IMG/VR virus record: IMGVR_UViG_3300040801_005248
Span: 1-25,539 of that record
DNA: 25,539 bases
Origin: a virus
Direction: 5' to 3' (one strand)
Position 1 is the first letter of the stretch, and every line of letters begins with the position of its first letter. The notes under the pieces are model-generated. The model saw only the letters and a list, made by a program, of their open reading frames with translations. It was not told where the DNA came from and did not search any database. Shown here piece after piece: positions 1,002 to 21,498 of the stretch. The position numbers and the translations under genes were made by a program.

Positions 1002-1250
1002 ATGTTAAAAGAACGAAAAAACCAGCCAGACCGCAACACGAAATATACACCAGACACAGTACTAGACTATTTAACCCACTTTCGCACCCACGCCAACGAC
1101 GAAACGTTTACCCGGATATTTGGCGACATGTTCGGTCCGCATCTATGGCAGAAATTCAAAAGCCAAGGCTACGACGCGCATGCGCTATGGTCATCACTAG
1201 ACAACAGCCGCCGCCGCGATTTTATCAACTACATACACCGCACTATCTAA
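1002..1250 (+). CDS. Hypothetical early protein (82 aa)
   Basis: ATG 1002 is in frame within ORF 957-1250 and follows the leader motif. The TTG 957 extension has no RBS. Confidence 0.65.
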   Translation: MLKERKNQPDRNTKYTPDTVLDYLTHFRTHANDETFTRIFGDMFGPHLWQKFKSQGYDAHALWSSLDNSRRRDFINYIHRTI

Positions 1251-1259
1251 CCCCAACAT

Positions 1260-1287
1260 GGGCGGCTTGGCCCACGCCGAGCCGCCC
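1260..1287 (+). other. GC-rich intergenic hairpin (GGGCGGCT/AGCCGCCC)
   Basis: 8-bp stem, 12-nt loop. Near-identical in sequence to the hairpin at 2540-2567. Confidence 0.55.
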
Positions 1288-1296
1288 CCTAACTTC

Positions 1297-1310
1297 CCAC
1301 CACGAAAGGA
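1297..1310 (+). promoter_or_regulatory. Leader motif CCACCACGAAAGGA (copy 2)
   Basis: Exact 14-mer, 5 nt upstream of ATG 1316, preceded by TAACTTC. Confidence 0.6.
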
Positions 1311-1315
1311 ACAGC

Positions 1316-1807
1316 ATGTACTTTGACCACTGTCAGACCGTAGAAGAAATTAAGGCCGAGTACCGCGAACTTGCCTTGAAAAACCATCCCGACGTAGGCG
1401 GAGACACCGCCACCATGCAGGCTATCAACGCCGCCTATGAGAAAGCCTTGCAACGAATGGACGGCCAAACCAGCAACGGCACAGACGGCCACCAGCACAC
1501 TTACCACTACAACGCCGACATAGAAGCCACGGTCATGGCGAAAATCAGCGAATTTTTAGCCGCCAAAATCCCCAACGTGGAATTGTGGCTTATTGGCACT
1601 TGGCTCTGGGCAGACGGAGACACCCGCCCCGCCCGCGCCCAGCTCAAGGCCCTGGGCTTCCGCTGGCACAACAAACGAAAAAAATGGTACTACACCGCCA
1701 CCCCAAACCGCACCCGCTACAATCGGAAAGCTAACCTCGGAGACTTGGCCGACAAATACGGAGCCAGAAATTTTAAGCAGGAGGAAGAACCAGCCCTAAC
1801 CACCTAA
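1316..1807 (+). CDS. J-domain (DnaJ-like) protein, 163 aa
   Basis: EEIKAEYRELALKNHPDVGGD carries the HPD tripeptide in a J-domain helix II/III context. ATG 1316 follows the leader motif. The C-terminus is W/K-rich (WLWADGDT..LKALGFRWHNKRKKWYY). Confidence 0.75.
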   Translation: MYFDHCQTVEEIKAEYRELALKNHPDVGGDTATMQAINAAYEKALQRMDGQTSNGTDGHQHTYHYNADIEATVMAKISEFLAAKIPNVELWLIGTWLWADGDTRPARAQLKALGFRWHNKRKKWYYTATPNRTRYNRKANLGDLADKYGARNFKQEEEPALTT

Positions 1808-1815
1808 ACGCAAAA

Positions 1816-1842
1816 CCGCCCGACCTGGTGCAGGTCGGGCGG
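1816..1842 (+). other. 12-bp perfect hairpin (CCGCCCGACCTG-GTG-CAGGTCGGGCGG)
   Basis: An A4 run lies 5' of it on the plus strand, which becomes U4 3' of it on the minus strand. It therefore looks terminator-like only for antisense transcription. Confidence 0.55.
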
Positions 1843-1852
1843 CCCTAACTTC

Positions 1853-1866
1853 CCACCACGAATGGA
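1853..1866 (+). promoter_or_regulatory. Leader motif variant CCACCACGAATGGA (copy 3)
   Basis: 13/14 match, preceded by TAACTTC as in copy 2. It lies 12 nt upstream of ATG 1879. Confidence 0.5.
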
Positions 1867-1878
1867 GAAGCATCAAAA

Positions 1879-2532
1879 ATGATAACAAAATATAACCGCA
1901 GTGCAAAAAGATACGAAATTTTCGGCGACGACCAAGACACACCGCTTGCCACCTTCCCCCCCGGCCAGGAGGGAAAGCAACAAGCCACCCTCTACAGCAT
2001 TTTAGCCACCGCCCCCGACGTTTACGAAGAAATGACGGCCATTATCCGCAATACCAAGCACAGCCCCGCCGCTACCGCAGTAGAGAATCGCGCGATTAAG
2101 GCCGCTCAGATTTTAATTGACCAAAAACTATTGCCGGCACGGCACTGGACACAGCCGGGAGCAGTCGCCAACGAAATCGCCCGCTGTAAGTCCAGCCACC
2201 ACGGCGGCGACCCAAACGAAATTTGGGAGTACGTCATTGGTCGAAATTTGACCGATGATCTACTCTCTTGCTCTTGCATTGACAATGTAGCCGGCTTTTG
2301 GGTCAAGCGCTACCAGGAGCCACACCCCGAATTTGGCGTCGGAAGCCCCGAATTATGGAACGGCCAGCCCGCTTGTAAACATATCTTGGCCCTCTACATT
2401 GCCGAAGCCTTAGAACAAAAGAGCTACGAACGCGAAGAAGCGATTGCTAAAAAAATCAGCTATTGGGAGCAGACTTACGGCCCCCGGAAGCTGACTGACG
2501 AAGAATTAGACCAAATCACCATTGACCTTTAA
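1879..2532 (+). CDS. SWIM-type zinc-finger protein, 217 aa
   Basis: CSCIDNVAGFW...(x)...PACKHILALY fits the CxCxnCxH SWIM signature. Confidence 0.65.
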   Translation: MITKYNRSAKRYEIFGDDQDTPLATFPPGQEGKQQATLYSILATAPDVYEEMTAIIRNTKHSPAATAVENRAIKAAQILIDQKLLPARHWTQPGAVANEIARCKSSHHGGDPNEIWEYVIGRNLTDDLLSCSCIDNVAGFWVKRYQEPHPEFGVGSPELWNGQPACKHILALYIAEALEQKSYEREEAIAKKISYWEQTYGPRKLTDEELDQITIDL

Positions 2533-2539
2533 CCCCGCC

Positions 2540-2567
2540 GGGCGGCCTGGCCCAGGCTGAGCCGCCC
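2540..2567 (+). other. GC-rich intergenic hairpin, paralogous to 1260-1287
   Basis: GGGCGGC..GCCGCCC stem. The sequence gggcggcctggcccaggctgagccgccc differs from 1260-1287 at 3 positions. Confidence 0.55.
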
Positions 2568-2587
2568 CCCTTCAGGAGAATTTTCTT

Positions 2588-2836
2588 ATGGAATACCCCG
2601 CCCTTGTTCAATTGGCTTCAATTGCTATGGATGACATCCAACGCGACCACGCCGAAGCCAGAACCACCGCCACCGTGACCCAGGCCGAAGCCGCCGAGCT
2701 ATTGGCCGCCCTCCCGTCGGCCCTGATCTACCCCGACCCCGACACCCCCGGCCAACAAATCGTAAGCATTGATAGCCTTGAGCTGGTCATGTTCTGCGCC
2801 AGTCACGGTATTAATATTTTTATGGAGATGAGATAA
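2588..2836 (+). CDS. Hypothetical early protein (82 aa)
   Basis: AGGAGA lies 8 nt upstream of the ATG. TAATG overlap with the next gene. Confidence 0.65.
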   Translation: MEYPALVQLASIAMDDIQRDHAEARTTATVTQAEAAELLAALPSALIYPDPDTPGQQIVSIDSLELVMFCASHGINIFMEMR

Positions 2837-3162
2837 TGGCCCGCCACGTAGACGACACATGGGGCGAACACATCGCCCTGTTAGACTGTCCAGAATGCGA
2901 TTATTACGGAGACATCTACTATACAACCAAACGGCCTAGCTACTGCTCAGACGCTTGTAAACAAAAGGCTTACCGCCGCCGCAAAGCGATAAAAAAGACC
3001 CGCCAATACCTCAAACGCTTACCCAACTGGCTACCCGTCCCCCTCAAACAAAGAATAGTTGGCTTTGGTGGCGAGTATGGTTCAGTAGCCGCCCAGGAAC
3101 TAACCGAAATTATAGCCGAAGTCGCCCGCTTGACGGCCAGACCCGACCAACTTAATTCATAA
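2836..3162 (+). CDS. Zinc-ribbon protein (108 aa)
   Basis: CPECDYYG...YCSDACKQKAYRRRK forms a CxxC...CxxxC module with a basic tail. Translationally coupled start (TAATG). Confidence 0.6.
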   Translation: MARHVDDTWGEHIALLDCPECDYYGDIYYTTKRPSYCSDACKQKAYRRRKAIKKTRQYLKRLPNWLPVPLKQRIVGFGGEYGSVAAQELTEIIAEVARLTARPDQLNS

Positions 3163-3170
3163 CCCCCCAC

Positions 3171-3184
3171 CCGTTACGAAAGGA
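3171..3184 (+). promoter_or_regulatory. Leader motif variant (CCGTTACGAAAGGA, copy 4)
   Basis: Shares ACGAAAGGA and an upstream C-rich tract. It lies 6 nt upstream of ATG 3191. Confidence 0.45.
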
Positions 3185-3190
3185 AAAGCA

Positions 3191-3733
3191 ATGTCTACCT
3201 ATCAAGAGCAAGTTTTAGCCCAACTCAAAGCCCAAACCGCTTTACTTGAACACATAGCCCTGCTCCTAGAGAAGCAAACCCAGGAATGGCAATACACCCC
3301 CGAAGGTCTACCAATTTGCCCCAAGCACGGCATAGTGATGAGTAAAAGAGAAAAACAAGGCGACACCTGGCACAGCCACCAGACCAGCACCGGAAATTAC
3401 TGTCGTGGCTACCGCACCGGATGGCCCGGAGACGGTTTCGACGACGACGACGACGACCAAACCCCGCCAGCCGCGCCCACGCCTACGCCCCAGCCCACGC
3501 CGCCCACGCCATCAGCCCCAATGCCGCAAGCCCAGGCCATCCCCCCGGCTCAGGCCGACCAGAAAGCCGAGCCGATTCCCGCTGGCAAAGCCCGCTTGAC
3601 ATTTTATGAAATCGGGCAGAGCCTTATCGGGGCAGGTAAAATGAAATTTGATGAGCTGAACGACTATGTAAGCATCGCCAGCCGGGAAGGTTGGCAGACT
3701 GGCTTGGAGCGATTGCAAGCGGATTTTGCTTGA
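3191..3733 (+). CDS. Hypothetical protein with Cys/His module, D6 acidic run and Pro-rich linker (180 aa)
   Basis: CPKHG..WHSH..YCRGY, then DDDDDD, then PPAAPTPTPQPTPPTP, then a helical C-terminal domain. Confidence 0.65.
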   Translation: MSTYQEQVLAQLKAQTALLEHIALLLEKQTQEWQYTPEGLPICPKHGIVMSKREKQGDTWHSHQTSTGNYCRGYRTGWPGDGFDDDDDDQTPPAAPTPTPQPTPPTPSAPMPQAQAIPPAQADQKAEPIPAGKARLTFYEIGQSLIGAGKMKFDELNDYVSIASREGWQTGLERLQADFA

Positions 3734-3782
3734 TACCCGTACTTGTGGTAAAAAAATTGTCATGCATATTAAAAGCTAAACG

Positions 3783-3816
3783 AAAAGCCCGCCGATACCC
3801 CGGCGGGCTTTTTTTT
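3783..3816. terminator. Bidirectional intrinsic terminator between the convergent early operons
   Basis: AAAAGCCCGCCG-ATACCC-CGGCGGGCTTTT followed by T8 on the plus strand. The A-run on the other side serves the minus strand more weakly. Confidence 0.8.
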
Positions 3817-4003
3817 GCGCTTCATTCTGACTACCCAGGCCCGACCGTGGCCGCCAACAACACGGCCACCGCTTCGCTCAAACCGTCTGCCTGCGCCCAC
3901 CGCTACCCGCCCCCGGCGTCCTCTTGCGCCCGGCCCAGCGCCGCCCCCGGTCTTGGCTCAGGGCCAGCCGTTTCGCTCAGCAAAAGGTCTAAAAGGCGAT
4001 TCG

Positions 4004-4339
4004 CTACCGCCTGACAGTCATCTCTATCCACTTCATGGGATTATCCAGGGACACGGACACATCATCAGCCAAAATGGGACAGCCCATAGCATCCAAGTTT
4101 TCATTCACAAAGCCCTCAGTATACCCAAACTTAACGGACAGATGCGCCGCCAACGCCTGGCGCTGGTCAGTGGTCAACAAATCAATATCCAACTCATAAA
4201 TCAGCTTAACCTCATTGCCTGGCAAGTTAGCCTCGCGTGGAAACGGCGAGCGCAGATGAACCGTATCGGTGCCGAACACCTCTCTCCACGTCTGTGCCCG
4301 CTCACTGTCGCCTGATATTCTCGCTTTGAAATCTCTCAT
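4004..4339 (-). CDS. Hypothetical protein (111 aa)
   Basis: TAATG overlap with the upstream gene. Last gene of the leftward early operon. Confidence 0.6.
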   Translation of the reverse strand: MRDFKARISGDSERAQTWREVFGTDTVHLRSPFPREANLPGNEVKLIYELDIDLLTTDQRQALAAHLSVKFGYTEGFVNENLDAMGCPILADDVSVSLDNPMKWIEMTVRR

Positions 4340-4861: not shown

Positions 4862-5136
4862 CTCGGGATCCATTCCTGCCGGTTTGCGTTCCAGCGATAC
4901 ATACGCCGCTCCAGGTAATCATAGAGCTTGTCTGCGTCCATTCTTTCGCCCTTGAGCGTGGCATTGACAACAATCTCAAAGTACATTCCCTCTTTTTCGG
5001 CCTGAATTTTGGCATAGCGCACAATGGCCGCCCGCCGCTTCTGCGTCAAGGCGGGCCGACGCACAACCACGCCCGACGGATTGACCACAATCGTTTTAGG
5101 GCTTCTCGTTGCTAATTTCGTGGTGGATTTACTCAT
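4858..5136 (-). CDS. Hypothetical basic protein (92 aa)
   Basis: ATGA overlap with the exonuclease gene stop (5133-5136). Confidence 0.6.
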   Translation of the reverse strand: MSKSTTKLATRSPKTIVVNPSGVVVRRPALTQKRRAAIVRYAKIQAEKEGMYFEIVVNATLKGERMDADKLYDYLERRMYRWNANRQEWIPR

Positions 5137-5723
5137 TCTGTACCGTCCATCCCCCGCCCCGCCATATGCGCCACCACGCCCCGGCAGAGCCAGGCATCAG
5201 CCGCCGCCCGGTGAGGCTTCATTTCTGGCGGCAATTCTACCCCGCATTGCCGCGCCGCCGTGGTTAATTTGACCCAGCGATTGCTACCGCGATAGCTGTT
5301 CCAATCGCCCCAAAAATCAGCGTAGGCCAGCATCGCGCAGGCCCAATCCGCCACACCCCGCCCATCGTCAGCTATACCCCAGGCCCGGGCCGACTGCGCC
5401 AGCAGTCGAATATCAAAACCCAAGTTGTAGACAATGATCAGCCGCCCGGTCAGTAAATCTTGTAGCTCATCATAAATATCGGCAAAAGTCGGCGCATTAG
5501 CCACCGCCTCATTGGTAATACCGTGGACACGCTGGGCTTCCCAATTGATGTGAATCGAAGGCTTAATCAGCGTATCGAGAAGCGACTTGCCCCCGGCATC
5601 CAGTACCGCTATCTCTACAATTTCATCTGTGGAATGCAAGCCCGTCGTTTCCGTATCGAGGAAAAGCGGGTCACTGTCCAGCCAGTACATTGCATCAATA
5701 ATTACCTGTTGTCTATCGTTCAT
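5133..5723 (-). CDS. DnaQ/epsilon-like DEDDh 3'-5' exonuclease (196 aa)
   Basis: Exo I FLDTETTGL, Exo II VYNLGFDIRLL, Exo III HRAAADAW. GGAGAA lies 9 nt upstream of the ATG. Confidence 0.8.
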   Translation of the reverse strand: MNDRQQVIIDAMYWLDSDPLFLDTETTGLHSTDEIVEIAVLDAGGKSLLDTLIKPSIHINWEAQRVHGITNEAVANAPTFADIYDELQDLLTGRLIIVYNLGFDIRLLAQSARAWGIADDGRGVADWACAMLAYADFWGDWNSYRGSNRWVKLTTAARQCGVELPPEMKPHRAAADAWLCRGVVAHMAGRGMDGTE

Positions 5724-5740: not shown

Positions 5741-5843
5741 GTAGTAATGTTCAGTAGTAGGGGGGTGGTCAGTAATCAGATGTCAGTAATCAGATGTCAG
5801 TAATCAGACTACCGACTACTGACTACCGACTACTGACCGCCCC
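5741..5843 (-). repeat. Heptanucleotide tandem-repeat spacer forming a long imperfect hairpin (R1)
   Basis: The left arm (plus strand) is a GTCAGTAATCAGAT 14-mer (two heptamers), about three copies. The right arm is about 2.5 copies of CTACCGACTACTGA. The arms pair over 5762-5843 with 2x2 internal loops every 14 nt. Confidence 0.85.
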
Positions 5844-5911
5844 TTTTTCGACCAGGGCGACGCCCCAAAAATCGCGCCCAGGACGTGCGTATGCGTGCGT
5901 GCGCACGGTTT

Positions 5912-6445
5912 TTACAAGCCTTCGGCCTGAAATTCCATCTCTAAATCGTAGCAGGCCTGGCATAAATCCAGGGTACCCCAATCGGCCTCTCCCCACTGCG
6001 GTTTGAAGCGATGCACCGCCTCCGCCCCACAATCGCACCAGAGCCGGGGCTTTTTGGGTAGATTGTTTTGCCGCCTATACCAGCAGGCAGAACAAACCCG
6101 GTTGGAATGGGTGATTTTGCGGATACCGTTGAACCCAGGCGGCATAGGCCGCCCGCAGTCAAAACACTTGCGATTGTCCCGACTAACGAAACACTTGGGC
6201 CGCTTCCGCCCGTGGTTGCGCCGGTATTGATAGCAGCTCTGGCACAGCCCCCGCCCCCCGTGCTTAACTCGACCGCCAAAAGCGACGTGGCAATCAAGGC
6301 AGAACTCACCCGCGCTGACATTGAGACCGGCCCGAGGTCGCCGCCGGCCAGTGCGCCACCTGTAGGCATAGCACGCAATGCACTCGCTCCGCGAGTTCAT
6401 TGTGATTTGTGTTTCATCCCGCCCACAATTCCGACATCGTTTCAT
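5912..6445 (-). CDS. Four-fold tandem zinc-ribbon repeat protein (177 aa)
   Basis: Four CxxC-(13-19)-CxxC[YW] modules. The first three are followed by a basic Y.R...G..RP-type tail (CIACYAYRWRTGRRRP, CQSCYQYRRNHGRKRP, CSACWYRRQNNLPKKP). Confidence 0.7.
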   Translation of the reverse strand: MKRCRNCGRDETQITMNSRSECIACYAYRWRTGRRRPRAGLNVSAGEFCLDCHVAFGGRVKHGGRGLCQSCYQYRRNHGRKRPKCFVSRDNRKCFDCGRPMPPGFNGIRKITHSNRVCSACWYRRQNNLPKKPRLWCDCGAEAVHRFKPQWGEADWGTLDLCQACYDLEMEFQAEGL

Positions 6446-7274: not shown

Positions 7275-7339
7275 TGATGTCAGTGGTCAGTAGTCAGTAG
7301 TCAGATATCCGATTACTGGCTACTGACTACTGACTGCTA
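7275..7339 (-). repeat. Heptanucleotide tandem-repeat spacer forming a ~26-bp hairpin (R2)
   Basis: 7279-7304 pairs with 7309-7334 (22 WC pairs, 3 G.T, 1 mismatch on the plus strand). The repeat starts at the TAG stop of gene 7337-7600. Confidence 0.85.
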
Positions 7340-9070: not shown

Positions 9071-9126
9071 TTAAAAACCTCAAATCATTTTGATAGATGG
9101 ATTCTGTAATGTACTTCTATTTAAAG

Positions 9127-9231
9127 CATGTGTACCGTACATAAGCGGCTTATGTACCGTACATAAGGAAAATTTTACTTATGACAAGTCGCTTATGTAC
9201 CGTACATAAGCGGGATATGTACCGTACATAT
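9127..9231. repeat. Array of four palindromic iterons/operators (core TGTACCGTACA) plus one degenerate copy
   Basis: Centres lie at 9136, 9158, 9201 and 9223 (spacings 22/43/22 bp). Copies 2 and 3 are the 19-bp palindrome CTTATGTAC-C-GTACATAAG. The AT-rich stretch 9071-9126 adjoins the array. Confidence 0.85.
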
Positions 9232-9240
9232 TGAAATTAG

Positions 9241-10098
9241 TCATTCAGCCAGGTATCCCAGGTCTGAAAATGAGGCCTGTTGCCACTCCTGATGATTGAC
9301 ATTGTGAATCGTCAACCAGCGCCGATGTTCGGCTTGAAGCCGCCGGCTAAAATAACTGACCTCAATTTCGGTGAGCAAAGGCAAACTTTCCAAAACCTGA
9401 AACGTGTAAGCCGTTTTGCGCCCGGCCCCGGTGGTCATCGTGCGCACAATACGCCGCTCCGAAAGCTCCTGGAGCCAGCCCTTAATGCCAGCCCGTTGAT
9501 GGGGCGGGTTGCCCCAGGCCCGCCGGCCCAACAATTTGTACCGCTGTCCTTTGGCTGTAATATCAGCCAAAAGAGCAATTGCGGGCCACTTGCCCGTCAG
9601 GTTTTGGGCCTCATAGCCAAATGATTTCAGGGTGAGCCACAGCCCAAACGCCTCGCCTAGCACCGGTTGCCAGAAACGCACCGCATACACCGAGGGCGCA
9701 ACAAAGGCCCGCAACGGGTCAGTCTGTACCAGTTCCGTTTTGAAGCGCCCAGGGCCAGGGCCATCCGGGTCAGGCTGAGGCCAAACGCTCATTTGAGGTA
9801 TTTTCTGTGCTATCGGGTCTGATGGTGGTGGCCGCCCCACCACGTAATCAATATGGCCTATCGCCGCATCTTGGAGTAAGGCCGCCCGCTTGATGGTGTC
9901 ATCCAGCCGGTTACTTAACCATTGTTGAGCAAACGTATTTTTGACGTAAACTGTGAGAATGCCCGTCTCTTTGTCCAGCACCGCCCCGCTATCCTGAAAC
10001 CACGTATCAAACGTGGATTTGGTCATCTGTAACTTTAATTGGTTTAATGTATCGGCCCAGGCGGGCCAGGCCGGAAGGGGATTGACTGAGGGTGACAA
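9241..10098 (-). CDS. Replication-initiator-like protein with DnaA N-terminal-like domain (285 aa)
   Basis: WADTLNQLKLQMTKSTFDTWFQDSGAVL..LTVYVKNTFAQQWLSNRLDDTIKRA follows the DnaA_N pattern. TTG start with AAAGGAG 6 nt upstream. The iterons lie immediately 3' of the gene. Confidence 0.55.
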   Translation of the reverse strand: MSPSVNPLPAWPAWADTLNQLKLQMTKSTFDTWFQDSGAVLDKETGILTVYVKNTFAQQWLSNRLDDTIKRAALLQDAAIGHIDYVVGRPPPSDPIAQKIPQMSVWPQPDPDGPGPGRFKTELVQTDPLRAFVAPSVYAVRFWQPVLGEAFGLWLTLKSFGYEAQNLTGKWPAIALLADITAKGQRYKLLGRRAWGNPPHQRAGIKGWLQELSERRIVRTMTTGAGRKTAYTFQVLESLPLLTEIEVSYFSRRLQAEHRRWLTIHNVNHQEWQQASFSDLGYLAE

Positions 10099-10144: not shown

Positions 10145-11041
10145 ATGAAACTTACCACCACGATTGAAGAATTTTTGATGGAAGCCAGGCTGAGCTTGGC
10201 CCCGGCCACGGTCAGCAAATACCAATCACATCTGCTTGGTTTTGCCGCCCACGTCGGCGACATCACCCTAAGCGACATCACCGCCCGCCACATCCGCACA
10301 TGGCGCGGAAGTTTGACGGATGCCCTATCACCCTATACAATCCACCAACGACAGCGAACATTACGTCGTTTTTTTAATTGGTGCCTTGACGAAGGCTATG
10401 TCAGCGCATCACCGGTGCGAACGGTGGCTTTCCCACCACTCCCCAAAGACCACCCGCCCCGCGCCATCTCAGCTTATGATTTACACCTAATGTTTCAGGC
10501 CGCTTTCAAGAGTGGACCCCGAGACTACGCCCTGGTTCGCTTCTTGGCCGATACCGGTTGCCGCATAGGCGGCCTGATCACGGCCAGAATAAGCGACTTG
10601 GACACGCAAAACAGAACCATTCTATTAACAGAAAAGGGGAATAAAACCCGCCCGGCCTGGTTTGGGAGTGAAACGGCCAACGCCTTACGCGCCTGGCTGG
10701 TCATTCGGCCCGACCACCCTTCAAACCGATTGTTTCTCAGTCAGCGGCCTGGCAGAGCGCCGGAGCCAATGACTACATCTGGCCCACGCCAGTTATTGAA
10801 ACGCCTGGCAGGGGAGATCGGAATTACCGGGCCGCATAATCCGCACGCCTTCCGCCACGCTTTCGCCCGGCGGATGCTGGCCAACGGCATGGACATCAGC
10901 GACTTAAGTCGCCTCATGGGGCATAGCTCCATCCAGGTCACGGCGAAGCATTACTTATGCTGGACAGCCGCCGAGTTGGGCCAGAAACACGCTCAATTTA
11001 ACTCGCTGGATGAAATAAAAATCACAACGAGGGATTTGTAG
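10145..11041 (+). CDS. int: Tyrosine recombinase / phage integrase (298 aa)
   Basis: Box I is ADTGCRIGGL. Then come HAFRHAFA (HxxR) and GHSSIQVTAKHY (H...Y nucleophile). The N-terminus is a SAM-like core-binding domain. Confidence 0.9.
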   Translation: MKLTTTIEEFLMEARLSLAPATVSKYQSHLLGFAAHVGDITLSDITARHIRTWRGSLTDALSPYTIHQRQRTLRRFFNWCLDEGYVSASPVRTVAFPPLPKDHPPRAISAYDLHLMFQAAFKSGPRDYALVRFLADTGCRIGGLITARISDLDTQNRTILLTEKGNKTRPAWFGSETANALRAWLVIRPDHPSNRLFLSQRPGRAPEPMTTSGPRQLLKRLAGEIGITGPHNPHAFRHAFARRMLANGMDISDLSRLMGHSSIQVTAKHYLCWTAAELGQKHAQFNSLDEIKITTRDL

Positions 11042-11233: not shown

Positions 11234-11269
11234 AAAGGCCCGATCACTGACACTGGTCGGGCCTTTTTT
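11234..11269. terminator. Intrinsic terminator shared by int (plus) and xis (minus)
   Basis: AAAGGCCCGA...TCGGGCCTTT stem followed by T6 on the plus strand. On the minus strand it directly follows the xis stop codon. Confidence 0.7.
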
Positions 11270-11471
11270 ATTCGTCTGTTCCCTGATTGCGCTTTTGGCG
11301 CAGGGCTTCAATATCTTCGGCAGGAATGAGCCAGGCCGAAGTCAGTTTGTCGGGGTCCACTTTAAAAGCATGGGGAAAATCGCCCCGGTGTAACCACAAA
11401 TGAATCGTGGTCTTGGCTACGCCAAACTCCATTGCGGCCTGTTCTACATTGTAGGGTCTATCGGTTGACAT
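11268..11471 (-). CDS. xis: Excisionase / MerR-type HTH DNA-binding protein (67 aa)
   Basis: YNVEQAAMEFGVAKTTIHLWLHRGDFP fits the excisionase-family HTH. Position is next to int/attP. Confidence 0.65.
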   Translation of the reverse strand: MSTDRPYNVEQAAMEFGVAKTTIHLWLHRGDFPHAFKVDPDKLTSAWLIPAEDIEALRQKRNQGTDE

Positions 11472-11493
11472 TATCGCCTGCCAAGTGTAAAGT
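11465..11493 (+). promoter_or_regulatory. Sigma70-like promoter for the moron cassette
   Basis: TTGACA (11465-11470), a 17-nt spacer, then TAAAGT (11488-11493). The -35 element overlaps the xis start codon. Confidence 0.5.
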
Positions 11494-11597
11494 TATACAG
11501 TAGATGGGCAGTGTACAGATTATTCGAAAATCTGTCAAGCCCGCTCTAAAATTTAGAAATGATAGTTATACCGCTTCGACGGGAAAGGAACTCTAAA

Positions 11598-11993: not shown

Positions 11994-12030
11994 CGTACCA
12001 TGACCGTCAATAAACCCAAAAATGAAAGGT

Positions 12031-14275: not shown

Positions 14276-14290
14276 AGTCACCTCAATTGA

Positions 14291-14340
14291 GAATTAAGAA
14301 TTAAGAATTAAGAATTTTTGACCCCTGACCCCTGAAACTC
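14291..14340 (-). repeat. In-register heptamer repeats, no hairpin (R3)
   Basis: Plus strand: (GAATTAA)x3, GAATTTTT, (GACCCCT)x2, GAAACTC. Sense strand: (AGGGGTC)x2 then (TTCTTAA)x3. Confidence 0.85.
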
Positions 14341-14346
14341 GTTTTG

Positions 14347-14535
14347 ACCTCCCCCCCCACCCCCTCTACCACCACAGACCCCCCACCCCCCTTGCAGGAG
14401 TTGGAAAGCTGTAAACAAACCAGAAACTTCAAGCTAAACCGCAACATCCAGCGAAAGAACAAGGACACACAGCCAAGACACAGCCAAGAGACAGCCAAGA
14501 GACAGCCAAGAGACAAGGCAAAGACAGGCCAGACA
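14347..14535 (-). repeat. Composite intergenic element, copy A
   Basis: Block 1 (14347-14399) matches 21338-21390 at 51/53. Block 2 (14417-14485) matches 21409-21477 at 68/69. Tail of 11-mer repeats (AGAGACAGCCA)x3. Confidence 0.9.
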
Positions 14536-16665: not shown

Positions 16666-16750
16666 GGAAATTGGGAATCAGGAATTAGAAAGGCCCACTC
16701 CCTAACCCCTAACCCCTAGCCCCTAATTCCTAATTCCTACCCCCTACTTC
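16666..16750 (-). repeat. Heptamer repeat spacer, seven sense-strand TAGs at 7-nt spacing (R4)
   Basis: Plus strand 16702-16750: CTAACCC x2, CTAGCCC, CTAATTC x2, CTACCCC, CTACTTC. The last CTA is the real stop of gene 16744-17016. The left arm GGAAATT GGGAATC AGGAATT is partly complementary. Confidence 0.85.
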
Positions 16751-17016
16751 CCCTTTAAATAATCCACCAAATCACCCAGCCCCACCGTATACTTCTGCCC
16801 CGTCCACAAGACCAGGGCCACGCCATCAGCGTACACCCGAAACTCTAAAATCTGCTTGGGGTCTATGCCATCGTGTTCGCACACATCATGCCCCGCCCCC
16901 TCTAAAAATTGCCGCGCCGCCTCCACCTCTTTTGGAAGATTAGTTTCCAACTTATCTACCTGTAGGTGCGTCTTTGAAGCCCTAGCCGTTCTCTTTGTCG
17001 CTTGTTTCGCCATCAC
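16744..17016 (-). CDS. Hypothetical small virion-module protein (90 aa)
   Basis: AAAGGA lies 7 nt upstream of ATG 17016. The longer 17070 start lies in repeat sequence. Confidence 0.55.
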   Translation of the reverse strand: MMAKQATKRTARASKTHLQVDKLETNLPKEVEAARQFLEGAGHDVCEHDGIDPKQILEFRVYADGVALVLWTGQKYTVGLGDLVDYLKGK

Positions 17017-17502: not shown

Positions 17503-17572
17503 TAGAAATTAGAAATTAGACGTCAGATGTCAGCAGTCAGATTACCGACTACCGACTACTGACTACTGCTTA
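17503..17572 (-). repeat. Ten in-register heptamers including a hairpin (R6)
   Basis: Sense strand: TAAGCAG TAGTCAG TAGTCGG TAGTCGG TAATCTG ACTGCTG ACATCTG ACGTCTA ATTTCTA ATTTCTA. The first TAA is the capsid gene stop. 17522-17540 pairs with 17545-17563. Confidence 0.85.
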
Positions 17573-19591
17573 CGCTACATTATTTTTGTGAATGCCCCGA
17601 TAGCCATCCACGCCCACGGCAAATTCATCACGGACTTTAATCGGGAGCTTATCGTTGGTGAACATCAGGCCGCCCAATTCACTTTGAGCCGTGAAGATCT
17701 CCGGAAGCGGGTGTTCCCGACCGCTGGCATCCTGACCATAGGTCATATGGATGACCGGGAAAAGCATCGGGTCAACGATGGCGGCCCAATCCGTGGCGTC
17801 AGTCCAATCAGGCACGGCCACCGGCACCGGACGAGGGTCAGCCGGGCCACGGTCATTGTAATTGGCGTCGTGAGCCGTCGGCACGGCATCGCTGTAGCCA
17901 AAATTATCCAGGGCTTGCCGATACAGATCGCCCGGCACCAGACAGTACTTAGGCCAGAAGCCCAGGCGTTTACCGCTTCCAATTTCAGTCTGCTTGAAAA
18001 CCGCCAACGAAGCCGCATTCCAAGCGGTCGTATCCGAACCCAAAGCCGTCGTCAACAAGTTGTTATGGTCGGCGTGGAACAAGGCCGTACTGTCCTGGCT
18101 TAAGGTCGGGCCAACGCCGCTATTGCTGGTAAAAATGGCACTGACCGCCGCCGAACGAGTACGCACCGCCGCCACCGCCAGAGAGCGAGGCACAACCTGA
18201 AGGCGCTGGATGTCAGAGTTCAAAATCATATTGCGGGTGATGGACAGATAGCCGCCTTTTTTGTCCCAGCTGTCGCTCTCTTTGGCGTCGTCAATCTCAA
18301 GCTCGGTGTAGGCCGCCCCATCGCTCACATCGGGCAAATCCCCTACCCCCCCAAAAGAAATCCACTGCATGTCGTGTCTACTACCATCGTTGGGTTCCAG
18401 CTTGGTAATCAACTCAAACCAGCGATACAGCTGTAAGTAGGTCCAGTGCTGAATAATGACCTTATTCATAGCGTTGACCGCCATCCCCGGCAACGTCACC
18501 GGCGAGGCCCCCGCCAACTCAACCCGGCTGGCATCAAACACACCGTGAAACGCGACATCACCAGAGGCGGCCACATAAATATCACGGAAACTGCGCCGGT
18601 TAGGCGGAGGCGTATCCGCCCCATCCACCCCAAAAATCCAATCAACATCATTTTGCGCCCGGTCAAGACCCGTTACTTGGCCCTCCAACCGGGTTCCTGT
18701 CTCCCGTTCCCGGGGAGCATGGCCCATCCCGGTCACGGCAGAGCCTTGGCCCAGCCGTTCCAGGGCCGATTGCAGGTCATCAATCTTTTGCTCAAGCCGA
18801 GCCGTGGCCTGGCTATCCGAGTCCAGATCAACAACCTGCGACTCGCCAGACAGAGCCGCCTCAATCAGCCTCGCAATGCGCCGCTGATAGGCTTTCTGGT
18901 CACCGTCCCGTTGCAATTGCTCATCGAAAACCTCTACAAGCTCATTCAGCAAGCCCTCATTGCTGGGTTCGTGACCTTCCTCATAAGTCACTTTCGTTTC
19001 TTCAGTACCACTCATAGCAAATTCCTCCATCAATAATTTATTAAGGCTCAATTGAGCACGAGCCATAGATAACATTTCCAACAAACGACCATCAGCCGCC
19101 GGGCCAAAAACCACATCGCAACTAATCACCTTCTGAATTTCAGTCAGCCGCCTGATACCCTCCCCATCTTCTTCAAACGCTCCGTAAAAATGGAGACTAA
19201 AGCCGATGTCGGGCACGGCCGCGCCAGTCTCCGCATCTTCGACCAAATCGTCCAGCAGTTCAGCCAGCCACGCCAGATCAGAGCGACTATACAAACTCAG
19301 CTTACCCGTTACGTCCCCGTCAGCATAAGTCACGGCAGAGAATACCCCCGCCGTTTTTTCAACTGAAGGCGACTGGAGCCAGCCGGGATGATCCACCAAA
19401 CAGCCCGCCCCCTCGAACAAGCCCCGTTCAACCGCATCCTGTAACACCGGAGCCGGAATAAATATATCCCCCGGCGTACCGTCCGCAAACACCACCCGCC
19501 CCGCTTTAATCAAGCGTACCAAATACTGCCGCCGTTTGCCGGTGGCCGCCAGCGATATCTCACTCTGGAGTCTCATTACTTCCACTGTCAC
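17570..19591 (-). CDS. Major capsid protein (HK97-fold-like C-terminal half) fused to a long N-terminal protease/scaffold-like region (673 aa)
   Basis: Position is directly after portal. The middle is a charged coiled-coil (EEGHEPSNEGLLNELVEVFDEQLQRDGDQKAYQRRIARLIEAAL). The C-terminal ~330 aa show capsid-like patterning (KKGGYLSITRNMILNSDIQ..LFHADHNNL..YCLVPGDLY). The start is uncertain (GTG 19585 has the best AGGAGG spacing). Confidence 0.6.
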   Translation of the reverse strand: MTVEVMRLQSEISLAATGKRRQYLVRLIKAGRVVFADGTPGDIFIPAPVLQDAVERGLFEGAGCLVDHPGWLQSPSVEKTAGVFSAVTYADGDVTGKLSLYSRSDLAWLAELLDDLVEDAETGAAVPDIGFSLHFYGAFEEDGEGIRRLTEIQKVISCDVVFGPAADGRLLEMLSMARAQLSLNKLLMEEFAMSGTEETKVTYEEGHEPSNEGLLNELVEVFDEQLQRDGDQKAYQRRIARLIEAALSGESQVVDLDSDSQATARLEQKIDDLQSALERLGQGSAVTGMGHAPRERETGTRLEGQVTGLDRAQNDVDWIFGVDGADTPPPNRRSFRDIYVAASGDVAFHGVFDASRVELAGASPVTLPGMAVNAMNKVIIQHWTYLQLYRWFELITKLEPNDGSRHDMQWISFGGVGDLPDVSDGAAYTELEIDDAKESDSWDKKGGYLSITRNMILNSDIQRLQVVPRSLAVAAVRTRSAAVSAIFTSNSGVGPTLSQDSTALFHADHNNLLTTALGSDTTAWNAASLAVFKQTEIGSGKRLGFWPKYCLVPGDLYRQALDNFGYSDAVPTAHDANYNDRGPADPRPVPVAVPDWTDATDWAAIVDPMLFPVIHMTYGQDASGREHPLPEIFTAQSELGGLMFTNDKLPIKVRDEFAVGVDGYRGIHKNNVA

Positions 19592-21337: not shown

Positions 21338-21498
21338 ACCTCCCCCCCCACCCCCTCTACCACCACAGAACCCCCGCCCCCCTTGCAGGAAACCAGAAAC
21401 CAGAACTAAAACCAGAAACTTCAAGCTAAACCGCAACATCCAGCGAAGGAACAAGGACACACAGCCAAGACACAGCCGACAGAGCCGACACAGCCAGG
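21338..21498 (-). repeat. Composite intergenic element, copy B
   Basis: Same two conserved blocks as copy A, in the same orientation, directly after the TerL stop (TAG 21499-21501). Confidence 0.9.

Follow-up and report, generated by a model that had tools for sequence, protein, structure and literature searches.

The DNA examined in this study, positions 1 to 25,539 of the IMG/VR virus record IMGVR_UViG_3300040801_005248 (25,539 nucleotides in all, hereafter the window), contains a long and regular hairpin of 82 bases at positions 5762–5843, which will be referred to as R1 and which consists of two inverted arrays of 7- and 14-nt repeats, clamped by GGGG/CCCC. The long open reading frames (ORFs) between about 4.3 and 25.5 kb lie on the minus strand, and R1 is found in a 188-nt spacer between two minus-strand genes, the downstream of which codes for an exonuclease. 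This agrees with a preliminary description, drawn up from the letters alone, in which R1 had been placed between genes and its sequence and coordinates given as we find them. The Shine-Dalgarno sequence of the exonuclease gene (GGAG, 5737–5734) is situated 24 nt downstream of the hairpin. No sigma-70-like promoter was called in the R1 spacer, which leaves the idea of a promoter within it unsupported.

Proteins encoded by the contig include a capsid-protease fusion, a portal, a tail protein, an SU10-type adaptor, a DnaA_N-domain protein and a tyrosine integrase (10145–11041, plus strand), and no phage RNA polymerase was found among the 20 ORFs scanned on this contig, which may be an incomplete genome. 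Since an integrase is present and an RNA polymerase was not seen, the contig is taken to belong to a temperate phage or prophage and not to a T7-like phage. Homologs of the capsid protein are named from Candidatus Promineifilaceae and Promineofilum and those of the exonuclease from Chloroflexota and Caldilineaceae, and judging from such names the host is probably a member of the Chloroflexota, of an Anaerolineae- or Promineifilaceae-like kind. A cyanophage, considered on account of a resemblance to the short tandemly repeated repetitive (STRR) sequences discussed below, was dropped, since the homologs carry Chloroflexota names and the heptamer is not restricted to cyanobacteria. Searching 7.9 kb around R1 against GenBank phages for DNA similarity gave no match.

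Within R1, Tandem Repeats Finder (TRF) reports GTCAGTAATCAGAT repeated 2.9 times at 5768–5808 and GACTACCGACTACT repeated 2.2 times at 5807–5837, both with a 100% match at period 14 and a lower one at period 7. The element had been described as tandem heptamers and arrays of period 7 are indeed present, but what is actually repeated in each arm is a unit of 14 nt that consists of two alternating heptamer variants. On the plus strand, positions 5762–5849 read in order GGGGGGTGG, (TCAGTAATCAGATG) x3, ACTACCGACTACTGACTACCGACTACTGACC, GCCCC and TTTTT. An inverted-repeat finder places the arms at 5762–5798 and 5807–5843, 37 nt each and 76% complementary, with 8 nt between them. Because the copies are identical within an arm and the two arms have diverged, the arms expanded separately after they had come to differ, each growing by its own tandem duplication of the 14-nt double unit.

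Folding calculations for both strands reproduced exactly the minus-strand RNA pairing that had been proposed (13 bp, a 2x2 loop, 12 bp, a second 2x2 loop, an apex and the clamp). The minus-strand RNA forms 32 pairs, four of them G.U, at −53.2 kcal/mol (z −7.61, with none of 200 shuffles as stable), and the plus-strand RNA folds more weakly at −43.1 kcal/mol (z −5.76), so that at R1 the sense strand is the more stable of the two; folded as DNA, the two strands give −22.5 and −17.9 kcal/mol. All four G.U pairs go back to just two independent transitions, later multiplied by duplication, and the preference for the sense strand is therefore weak evidence, expected by chance in about one case in four. 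The regular spacing of the 2x2 loops, likened earlier to that of RNase III processing hairpins, is not a matter of design but an arithmetic outcome of two period-14 arrays that differ at fixed positions, since a mismatch between them recurs every 14 nt. Saturation with stop codons is real in so far as the minus strand of 5762–5843 holds four TAG and six TGA triplets which cover all three frames, but it is a property of the GTCAGTA unit wherever this occurs and not a feature of the site. A scan of the window with Rfam 15 gave nothing at the gathering score, only sub-threshold look-alikes of miRNA precursors, and a tRNA scan found nothing.

Table 1. Coordinates of R1 and its parts, the adjoining genes and spacer, and the other repeat arrays of the window
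Feature	Position	Strand	Description
Downstream gene, RNase_T / DnaQ-like 3'-5' exonuclease	5133–5723	minus	196 aa; start codon 5723–5721
Degenerate heptamer remnants	5741–5761	minus	TACTACT GAACAT TACTACT, between R1 hairpin and Shine-Dalgarno sequence
R1 clamp	5762–5765 / 5840–5843	minus	4-bp G/C pairing in minus-strand RNA fold
R1 3' arm (sense)	5767–5809	minus	(CTGATTA CTGACAT) x3; plus-strand reading GTCAGTAATCAGAT x2.9
R1 lower stem	5767–5779 / 5826–5838	minus	13 bp, then 2x2 loop
R1 upper stem	5782–5793 / 5812–5823	minus	12 bp, then 2x2 loop, then 3-bp apex
R1 5' arm (sense)	5807–5838	minus	(GTCAGTA GTCGGTA) x2.2, copies 100% identical
T5 run	5844–5848	plus	directly after R1; A5 before hairpin on sense strand
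Remaining spacer	5850–5911	minus	weak hairpin 5852–5882; CGTG/CGCA-rich hairpin 5884–5907, then T5 on plus strand
Upstream gene	5912–6445	minus	177 aa, weak DUF7685 match only
Sister hairpin GTCAGTA/TACTGAC	7279–7334	minus	starts 2 nt past upstream stop codon, ends 30 nt before next start
Arrays AATTAAG x4.6 and TGACCCC x2.4	14285–14335		spacer, no hairpin
Arrays GGGGTTA, GGAATTA	16666–16751	minus	weaker hairpin in another spacer
Sister hairpin GTCAGTA, GTCGGTA / CTGAC	17522–17563	minus	6 nt past capsid gene stop codon
Array GAAACCA x4.7	21389–21419		spacer after 518-aa gene, no hairpin

TRF together with a period-7 scan revealed at least five further intergenic heptamer arrays besides R1, strict or near-strict and all of them in spacers. 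Counting R1, six or more spacers in the 25.5 kb contain arrays, and long ORFs contain none; strict period-7 arrays number five in the window and zero in Markov shuffles. Together with R1, the hairpins at 7279–7334 and 17522–17563 make up one GTCAGTA/TACTGAC family, the sisters having only the units in common. For that at 7279–7334 the plus-strand fold (−45.2 kcal/mol) is more stable than the minus-strand one (−34.7 kcal/mol), a preference opposite to that of R1; for that at 17522–17563 the minus-strand fold (−27.4 kcal/mol) is more stable than the plus-strand one (−14.9 kcal/mol). Both end about 30 nt before the next start codon, with the ribosome-binding site left free.

Evidence that R1 changes in length comes from a 1317-nt contig (L201, JGI sample 3300040791) which encodes an identical exonuclease and is identical to the window over approximately 460 nt, except that one 14-nt unit of the R1 5' arm, GTCAGTAGTCGGTA, is missing; this allele still folds, at −35.0 kcal/mol. 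In another contig (L206, sample 3300040804) the capsid-proximal hairpin at 17522–17563 is identical to that of the window. Exact-protein look-ups of two small neighbouring genes found nothing on record, with one extra R1 allele recovered, and searches for relatives of the exonuclease in viral contigs and in metagenome contigs yielded nothing usable. Three prophage-like Promineofilum loci (L208–L210), which are assemblies of one and the same region and whose capsid proteins are identical to one another, carry GACGAAT/GACGAGT and CATCTCG arrays, one of which differs by 14 nt between L208 and L210, and share with the window (16666–16690) the units GGGAATC/AGGAATT, which in these loci lie upstream of the capsid gene. 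The arms of R1 are thus still subject to single-unit change where genomes are otherwise identical. The Promineofilum array that differs in length is found at L208:6835–6870 and L210:3280–3334, and in L209 there is a run of N (an assembly gap); heptamer arrays break or blur short-read assemblies.

Conservation among related phages, which had been proposed as a check, was not observed. Where the exonuclease is about 50% identical (L202–L204) the genes overlap, leaving no spacer at the R1 junction, and heptamer arrays are absent; none were found either in seven viral contigs with 42–60%-identical capsids or in the closest capsid relative (L207, 59%). Some more distant relatives carry arrays of other units (GGGAGTA in two contigs, GAAACYT in one). 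Two observations had been named as speaking against a processing hairpin, transcript ends lying elsewhere and relatives lacking structure at the junction, and the latter is what we find. R1 is by these comparisons lineage-specific and not conserved among related phages. The repeats track the lineage of the host and not that of the phage, which fits a temperate phage replicated within the host chromosome.

A scan for three tandem copies of GTCAGTA, with one genome taken per species, recovered at least 120 genome stretches from many phyla, and all figures given for genomes here and below apply to the matches listed. These came from, among others, Microcoleus, Tychonema, Calothrix, Microcystis, many Pyrinomonadaceae, other Acidobacteriota, Anaerolineae, Caldilineaceae and Planctomycetota, the phyla with such arrays therefore including Cyanobacteria, Acidobacteriota, Chloroflexota and Planctomycetota; among 2.9 million viral contigs, 23 had the triple unit. 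Inverted partners were counted for 112 genomic arrays situated away from the ends of their loci: a partner of the TACTGAC type lay within 200 nt downstream in 39 and upstream in none, and was seen in 9 of 1056 control windows, an enrichment of about 40-fold. The purine-rich GTCAGTA arm is consequently 5' and the TACTGAC arm 3' in 39:0 cases in genomes, and likewise in 5:0 viral contigs, 3:0 hairpins of the window and 14:0 of the ribosomal RNA (rRNA) insertions described below, approximately 60:0 overall for this unit; other unit families place their purine-rich arm 5' in 17 instances out of 21 (17:4). As an inverted repeat is the same on both strands, this polarity does not come from gene orientation or replication strand. 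We found no description of it in the papers on heptamer repeats that were consulted. By crude ORF calls, arrays of the hairpin type lie between codirectional genes in 22 cases, convergent genes in 12 and divergent genes in two, and in none inside ORFs. As a source of the polarity, that the arrays might be extensions of A-tract/T-tract terminators was considered and rejected; a few Pyrinomonadaceae loci agree with it but the class at large does not, A4 or T4 being present at the expected places in 3 and 5 of 41 long spacers.

A 26-nt string of the R1 3' arm, GTCAGTAATCAGATGTCAGTAATCAG, was met again in 24 metagenome contigs that show no other relation to the window, one of which (L236) is 100% identical to that arm over 42 nt and has the inverted partner as well. 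Fifteen of the 24, from soil-type metagenomes, share one context, which Rfam identifies as 23S rRNA. In one example (L235) the 23S gene measures 3268 nt against a model of 2925 nt and the repeat lies some 1235 nt into the gene, where by our own reading it would adjoin the counterpart of E. coli helix 45. The 26-mer forms the 5' end of an insertion of about 466 nt (e.g., L235:2480–2960, minus strand) which is terminated by the inverted array and encodes a protein matching PF05635, the '23S rRNA-intervening sequence protein' (23S_rRNA_IVP; E 1.8e-27). The ends of the insertion pair into a 34-bp basal stem with 1x1 and 2x2 loops at −60.1 kcal/mol, much like R1. Across 14 contigs 99.2% of the cells of this stem are paired and four pairs show compensatory double changes, a result reached by none of 500 shuffles, with the columns of the 5' arm being fixed by the search pattern. 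Elsewhere (L245:11117–11198) a hairpin of this same repeat stands between two tRNA genes of a 16S-23S spacer.

In Coxiella, RNase III cuts out those intervening sequences at helix 45 that contain an S23p gene (PMC4990558). The enzyme also cleaves a hairpin of heptamer repeats in the 5' untranslated region (UTR) of the hmw genes of H. influenzae, where the repeat number sets expression (PMC12721329). The 25–32-bp duplex predicted for R1 is plausibly the kind of RNA that RNase III cuts, and both cases may serve as precedents for its handling, not as proof. Of the RNase III processing suggested earlier for R1, the suitability of the duplex and the existence of precedents are thus upheld, and the notion of a dedicated, conserved site of the T7 type is not. 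The likeness to the hmw1A hairpin, built on (ATCTTTC)n, extends to a heptamer repeat forming one arm of a long hairpin upstream of a gene, transcribed, varying in length with repeat number and a substrate, for R1 a putative one, of RNase III; the differences are that hmw1A pairs one repeat arm with a G-rich one, that its locus serves the phase variation of a surface adhesin in a pathogen, and that its cleavage was shown experimentally. The 23S helix-45 stems have in their 5' arm the same 26 nt, the same look of a stem with 1x1 and 2x2 loops and the same polarity, but they enclose an insert of about 466 nt in an rRNA gene and show compensatory changes, whereas R1, in the spacer of an mRNA, encloses an 8-nt loop and is without covariation.

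Several groups of bacteria have intergenic heptamer repeats: TAACTGA in Beggiatoaceae, Cyanobacteria and Bacteroidetes (PMC4679880), GGGAATC and GGGGAYT in Xanthomonas and Nostoc (PMC4692102), the long simple-sequence repeats (SSRs) of Mrazek 2007 as cited in PMC4679880, and the STRR heptamers of filamentous cyanobacteria as presented by citing papers. They are reported to be non-coding, fast to change in length, scarce between divergent genes and occasionally inverted, and their function is stated to be unresolved (PMC4679880, PMC4692102). Literature searches with the literal repeat strings returned nothing relevant, and those combining heptamer repeats with phage found no phage report. R1 and its class resemble these heptanucleotide SSRs in having tandem 7-nt units, a strictly intergenic position, many arrays per genome, fast variation in length and sequence between close relatives, few arrays between divergent genes and, at times, inverted stem-loops. 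With at least three tandem 7-nt copies, many non-coding arrays around it, copy change by whole units and a unit found in unrelated genomes, R1 almost certainly belongs to the heptanucleotide SSRs (the STRR or long SSR class). It differs from the known ones in residing in a phage genome, in its GTCAGTA family and 14-nt double units, and in its abutting arms and tight hairpin, and so adds a phage member to this known class of repeat hairpins. Judging from the sequences, it is evidently part of a cross-phylum population of identical repeats placed after genes.

The explanation that we favour, at a probability of about 0.5, is that R1 is a pair of inverted heptanucleotide SSR arrays of host type in an intercistronic spacer of a temperate phage, which we infer to act as a processing or stability hairpin tuned by repeat number. 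On transcription of the minus-strand operon the arrays would fold into a duplex of about 32 bp, which the double-strand-specific RNase III of the host might cut, which might block 3' exonucleases, or both; the stability of the upstream and downstream cistrons would thereby be uncoupled, and slippage, by altering the length of the duplex (−53 versus −35 kcal/mol for the two alleles), could tune the effect. The lack of a U-tract on the sense strand and the ribosome-binding sites left free by the sister hairpins are counted in favour of such a role at the RNA level.

Several points weigh against this explanation. Its functional half, cleavage or stabilisation, is inferred, and the host, hence the host RNase III, is only probably that of a Chloroflexota. 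The differences between the arms of R1 are one-sided transitions and uncompensated transversions, with no compensatory change, and what connects R1 to the rRNA insertions is a shared repeat sequence and not homology of the elements. Four G.U pairs do occur in the minus-strand RNA of R1, as had been pointed out, but strand preference is inconsistent across the three sister hairpins, so the argument that such pairs mark the sense strand does not generalise and was rejected as a general rule. Relatives with ~50%-identical exonucleases get by with overlapping genes and no structure at this junction, and any role of R1 must therefore be dispensable. Finally, the antisense strand carries a T5 run, which suggests some other role on the plus strand.

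Among the alternatives, one that we hold unlikely but that deserves serious weight is that R1 is a neutral by-product, slippage repeats being tolerated where no reading frame is broken and both hairpin and stop codons being side effects. It would account for the copy-number polymorphism of R1, for an identity within arms far above the complementarity between them, for the absence of the structure from relatives and for the two of six array-bearing spacers that form no hairpin, and it sits well with a literature that leaves the function of heptamer repeats open. Against it speak the roughly 40-fold excess of inverted partners, the regular position of the hairpins, which follow closely on stop codons and end before the next ribosome-binding site is reached, and the polarity, strict for the GTCAGTA unit and still 17:4 for other units, which symmetric slippage would hardly produce. 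The proposal made at the outset, a dedicated and selected RNase III site separating cistrons as in T7, now looks improbable. The T7 sites (R0.3 to R18.5) are conserved unique sequences with about two 10-bp stems around an asymmetric loop, and T7 itself is a virulent phage with its own polymerase. R1 has in common with them an intercistronic position in a polycistronic phage message and a long duplex interrupted by internal loops, and duplexes of the same kind of repeat are cut by RNase III elsewhere. However, it lies in a phage that encodes a tyrosine integrase and in which no polymerase was seen, its sequence is repetitive and common in bacterial chromosomes, its repeat number is polymorphic, its 2x2 loops are symmetric and follow from the repeat period, and the junction is not conserved, so that the analogy with T7 drawn in the preliminary description is abandoned.

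Unlikely as well, though with neutrality one of the two main rivals, is that R1 halts plus-strand transcription, antisense or convergent, arriving from the gene block at 1145–4315, in the manner of an intrinsic terminator; a role on the sense strand would be compatible with this. R1 shares with Rho-independent terminators a stable, G+C-rich clamped stem and, on one strand alone, the plus strand, a T5 behind it: the lower stem of the plus-strand fold measures 16 bp and its last bases are CCGCCCC, with the T5 immediately after it, an adjacency expected by chance at about 0.004 given the 31 runs of five or more T in 25.5 kb, and 40 nt beyond R1 a second plus-strand hairpin with T5 follows (5884–5913). 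No strong terminator was called near 4315–4339, where the gene blocks converge and ORFs overlap (about 4004–4339), and in some Pyrinomonadaceae loci (L115, L140) the same arrays flank canonical hairpin-plus-T-run terminators. Against this, the strand of the upstream gene has no U-tract, reading CCUACUACUGAAC after the stem, and R1 is terminator-like for plus-strand transcription only. Its stem is far longer than that of such terminators, no plus-strand gene ends nearer than 1.4 kb, T-runs are missing from both strands of the sister hairpins, R1 itself folds less stably on the plus than on the minus strand, the second T5 shares bases with the TAA that ends the upstream gene, and the association with A- or T-tracts is not general in this class of arrays. 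A small mobile element inserted in the spacer, such as a miniature inverted-repeat transposable element (MITE), a repetitive extragenic palindromic (REP) sequence or a Correia-like element with the arrays as terminal inverted repeats, is very improbable. REP sequences and bacterial interspersed mosaic elements (BIMEs) of enterobacteria and Correia elements of Neisseria are likewise palindromes scattered over intergenic sites that follow genes; folded in the mRNA, they can make the message upstream more stable or become targets of RNase III. Terminal repeats would be expected to have strict arm polarity, arrays elsewhere do flank cargo (related cores of about 54 nt in Pyrinomonadaceae, the 23S_rRNA_IVP gene in the rRNA insertions), and 42 nt of R1 recur in the unrelated contig L236; yet R1 has no cargo and no visible target-site duplication in its flanks, its arms differ in copy number and unit variants, the sequences that separate the arrays of any one genome are for the most part unrelated, and indels of tandem units account for the variation observed. 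REP, BIME and Correia elements are copies of a defined consensus moved as a unit, whereas elements of the R1 type are built locally from variable tandem units. Least credible of all are protein-binding iterons, be it of an origin, a partition or packaging site or the arm sites of the integrase: three direct and two inverted copies of a 14-bp unit might suggest them, but the units are not replicon-specific, since three window spacers and hundreds of unrelated genomes contain them, the 14-bp spacing is off the helical repeat, R1 lies 4 kb from the integrase gene and not beside the DnaA_N gene, and a better candidate exists at 9126–9230. Clustered regularly interspaced short palindromic repeats (CRISPR) were rejected as there are no spacers between the repeats, and an attachment site because of the distance of R1 from the integrase gene.

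A wider and decidedly speculative suggestion may be made, that inverted heptamer arrays are cross-phylum, expandable double-stranded RNA modules of fixed polarity (purine-rich 5', pyrimidine-rich 3') which offer RNase III an entry after chromosomal genes, in rRNA spacers and 23S stems and between phage cistrons, with slippage altering the size of the duplex and thereby tuning expression. Temperate phages would then copy the repeat regime of their host and carry the duplex into their own spacers. Among long simple repeats, those of seven nucleotides are the commonest kind in several bacterial phyla, with no established function, and the strict polarity, along with the reuse of the repeat in covarying 23S stems, points to selection at the RNA level and to RNase III. 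The phage provides a compact natural test bed, since a single family supplies hairpins to three defined gene junctions and at least one polymorphism in length is present. For annotation this means that a long and regular hairpin in a phage spacer may be a repeat of host type and not a dedicated phage signal.

Some further observations concern other arrays and regions. In six loci from metagenome-assembled genomes of Pyrinomonadaceae and Acidobacteriota, inverted GTCAGTA arrays enclose apparently related spacers of 50–56 nt (GTCAGCGTCAGC ... GCGGAG), which may represent a REP- or MITE-like family with heptamer-array ends. At 16700–16751 of the window the heptamers CCCTAAC and CCCTAAT, GGGGTTA on the sense strand, form a succession of G-tracts that might adopt quadruplexes. 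Unusual in its long C-runs is the spacer (14335–14535) that follows the 495-aa gene; it has CCTCCCCCCCCACCCCC ... CCCCCCACCCCCC, and includes an 11-nt repeat, ACAGCCAAGAG, in 5.4 copies at 14469–14527. The capsid gene (17570–19591) encodes a protein of 673 aa in which the major capsid protein is fused to an N-terminal part resembling a protease or scaffold, and homologs of this protein are plentiful in metagenomes under names from Promineifilaceae. Canonical terminators with a U-tract do occur in the window, at 11234–11266 on the plus and at 11994–11957 on the minus strand, and they flank a short region beside the integrase gene; three of the six promoter-like sites of the scan fall at 11465–11552, and the region between the terminators is probably that of lysogeny/lysis control. 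Positions 9126–9230, in the spacer just downstream of the DnaA_N-domain gene (9241–10098), hold four to five copies of a unit of about 22 nt with the palindrome ATGTACGGTACAT, making this a better candidate than R1 for an operator or origin iterons.

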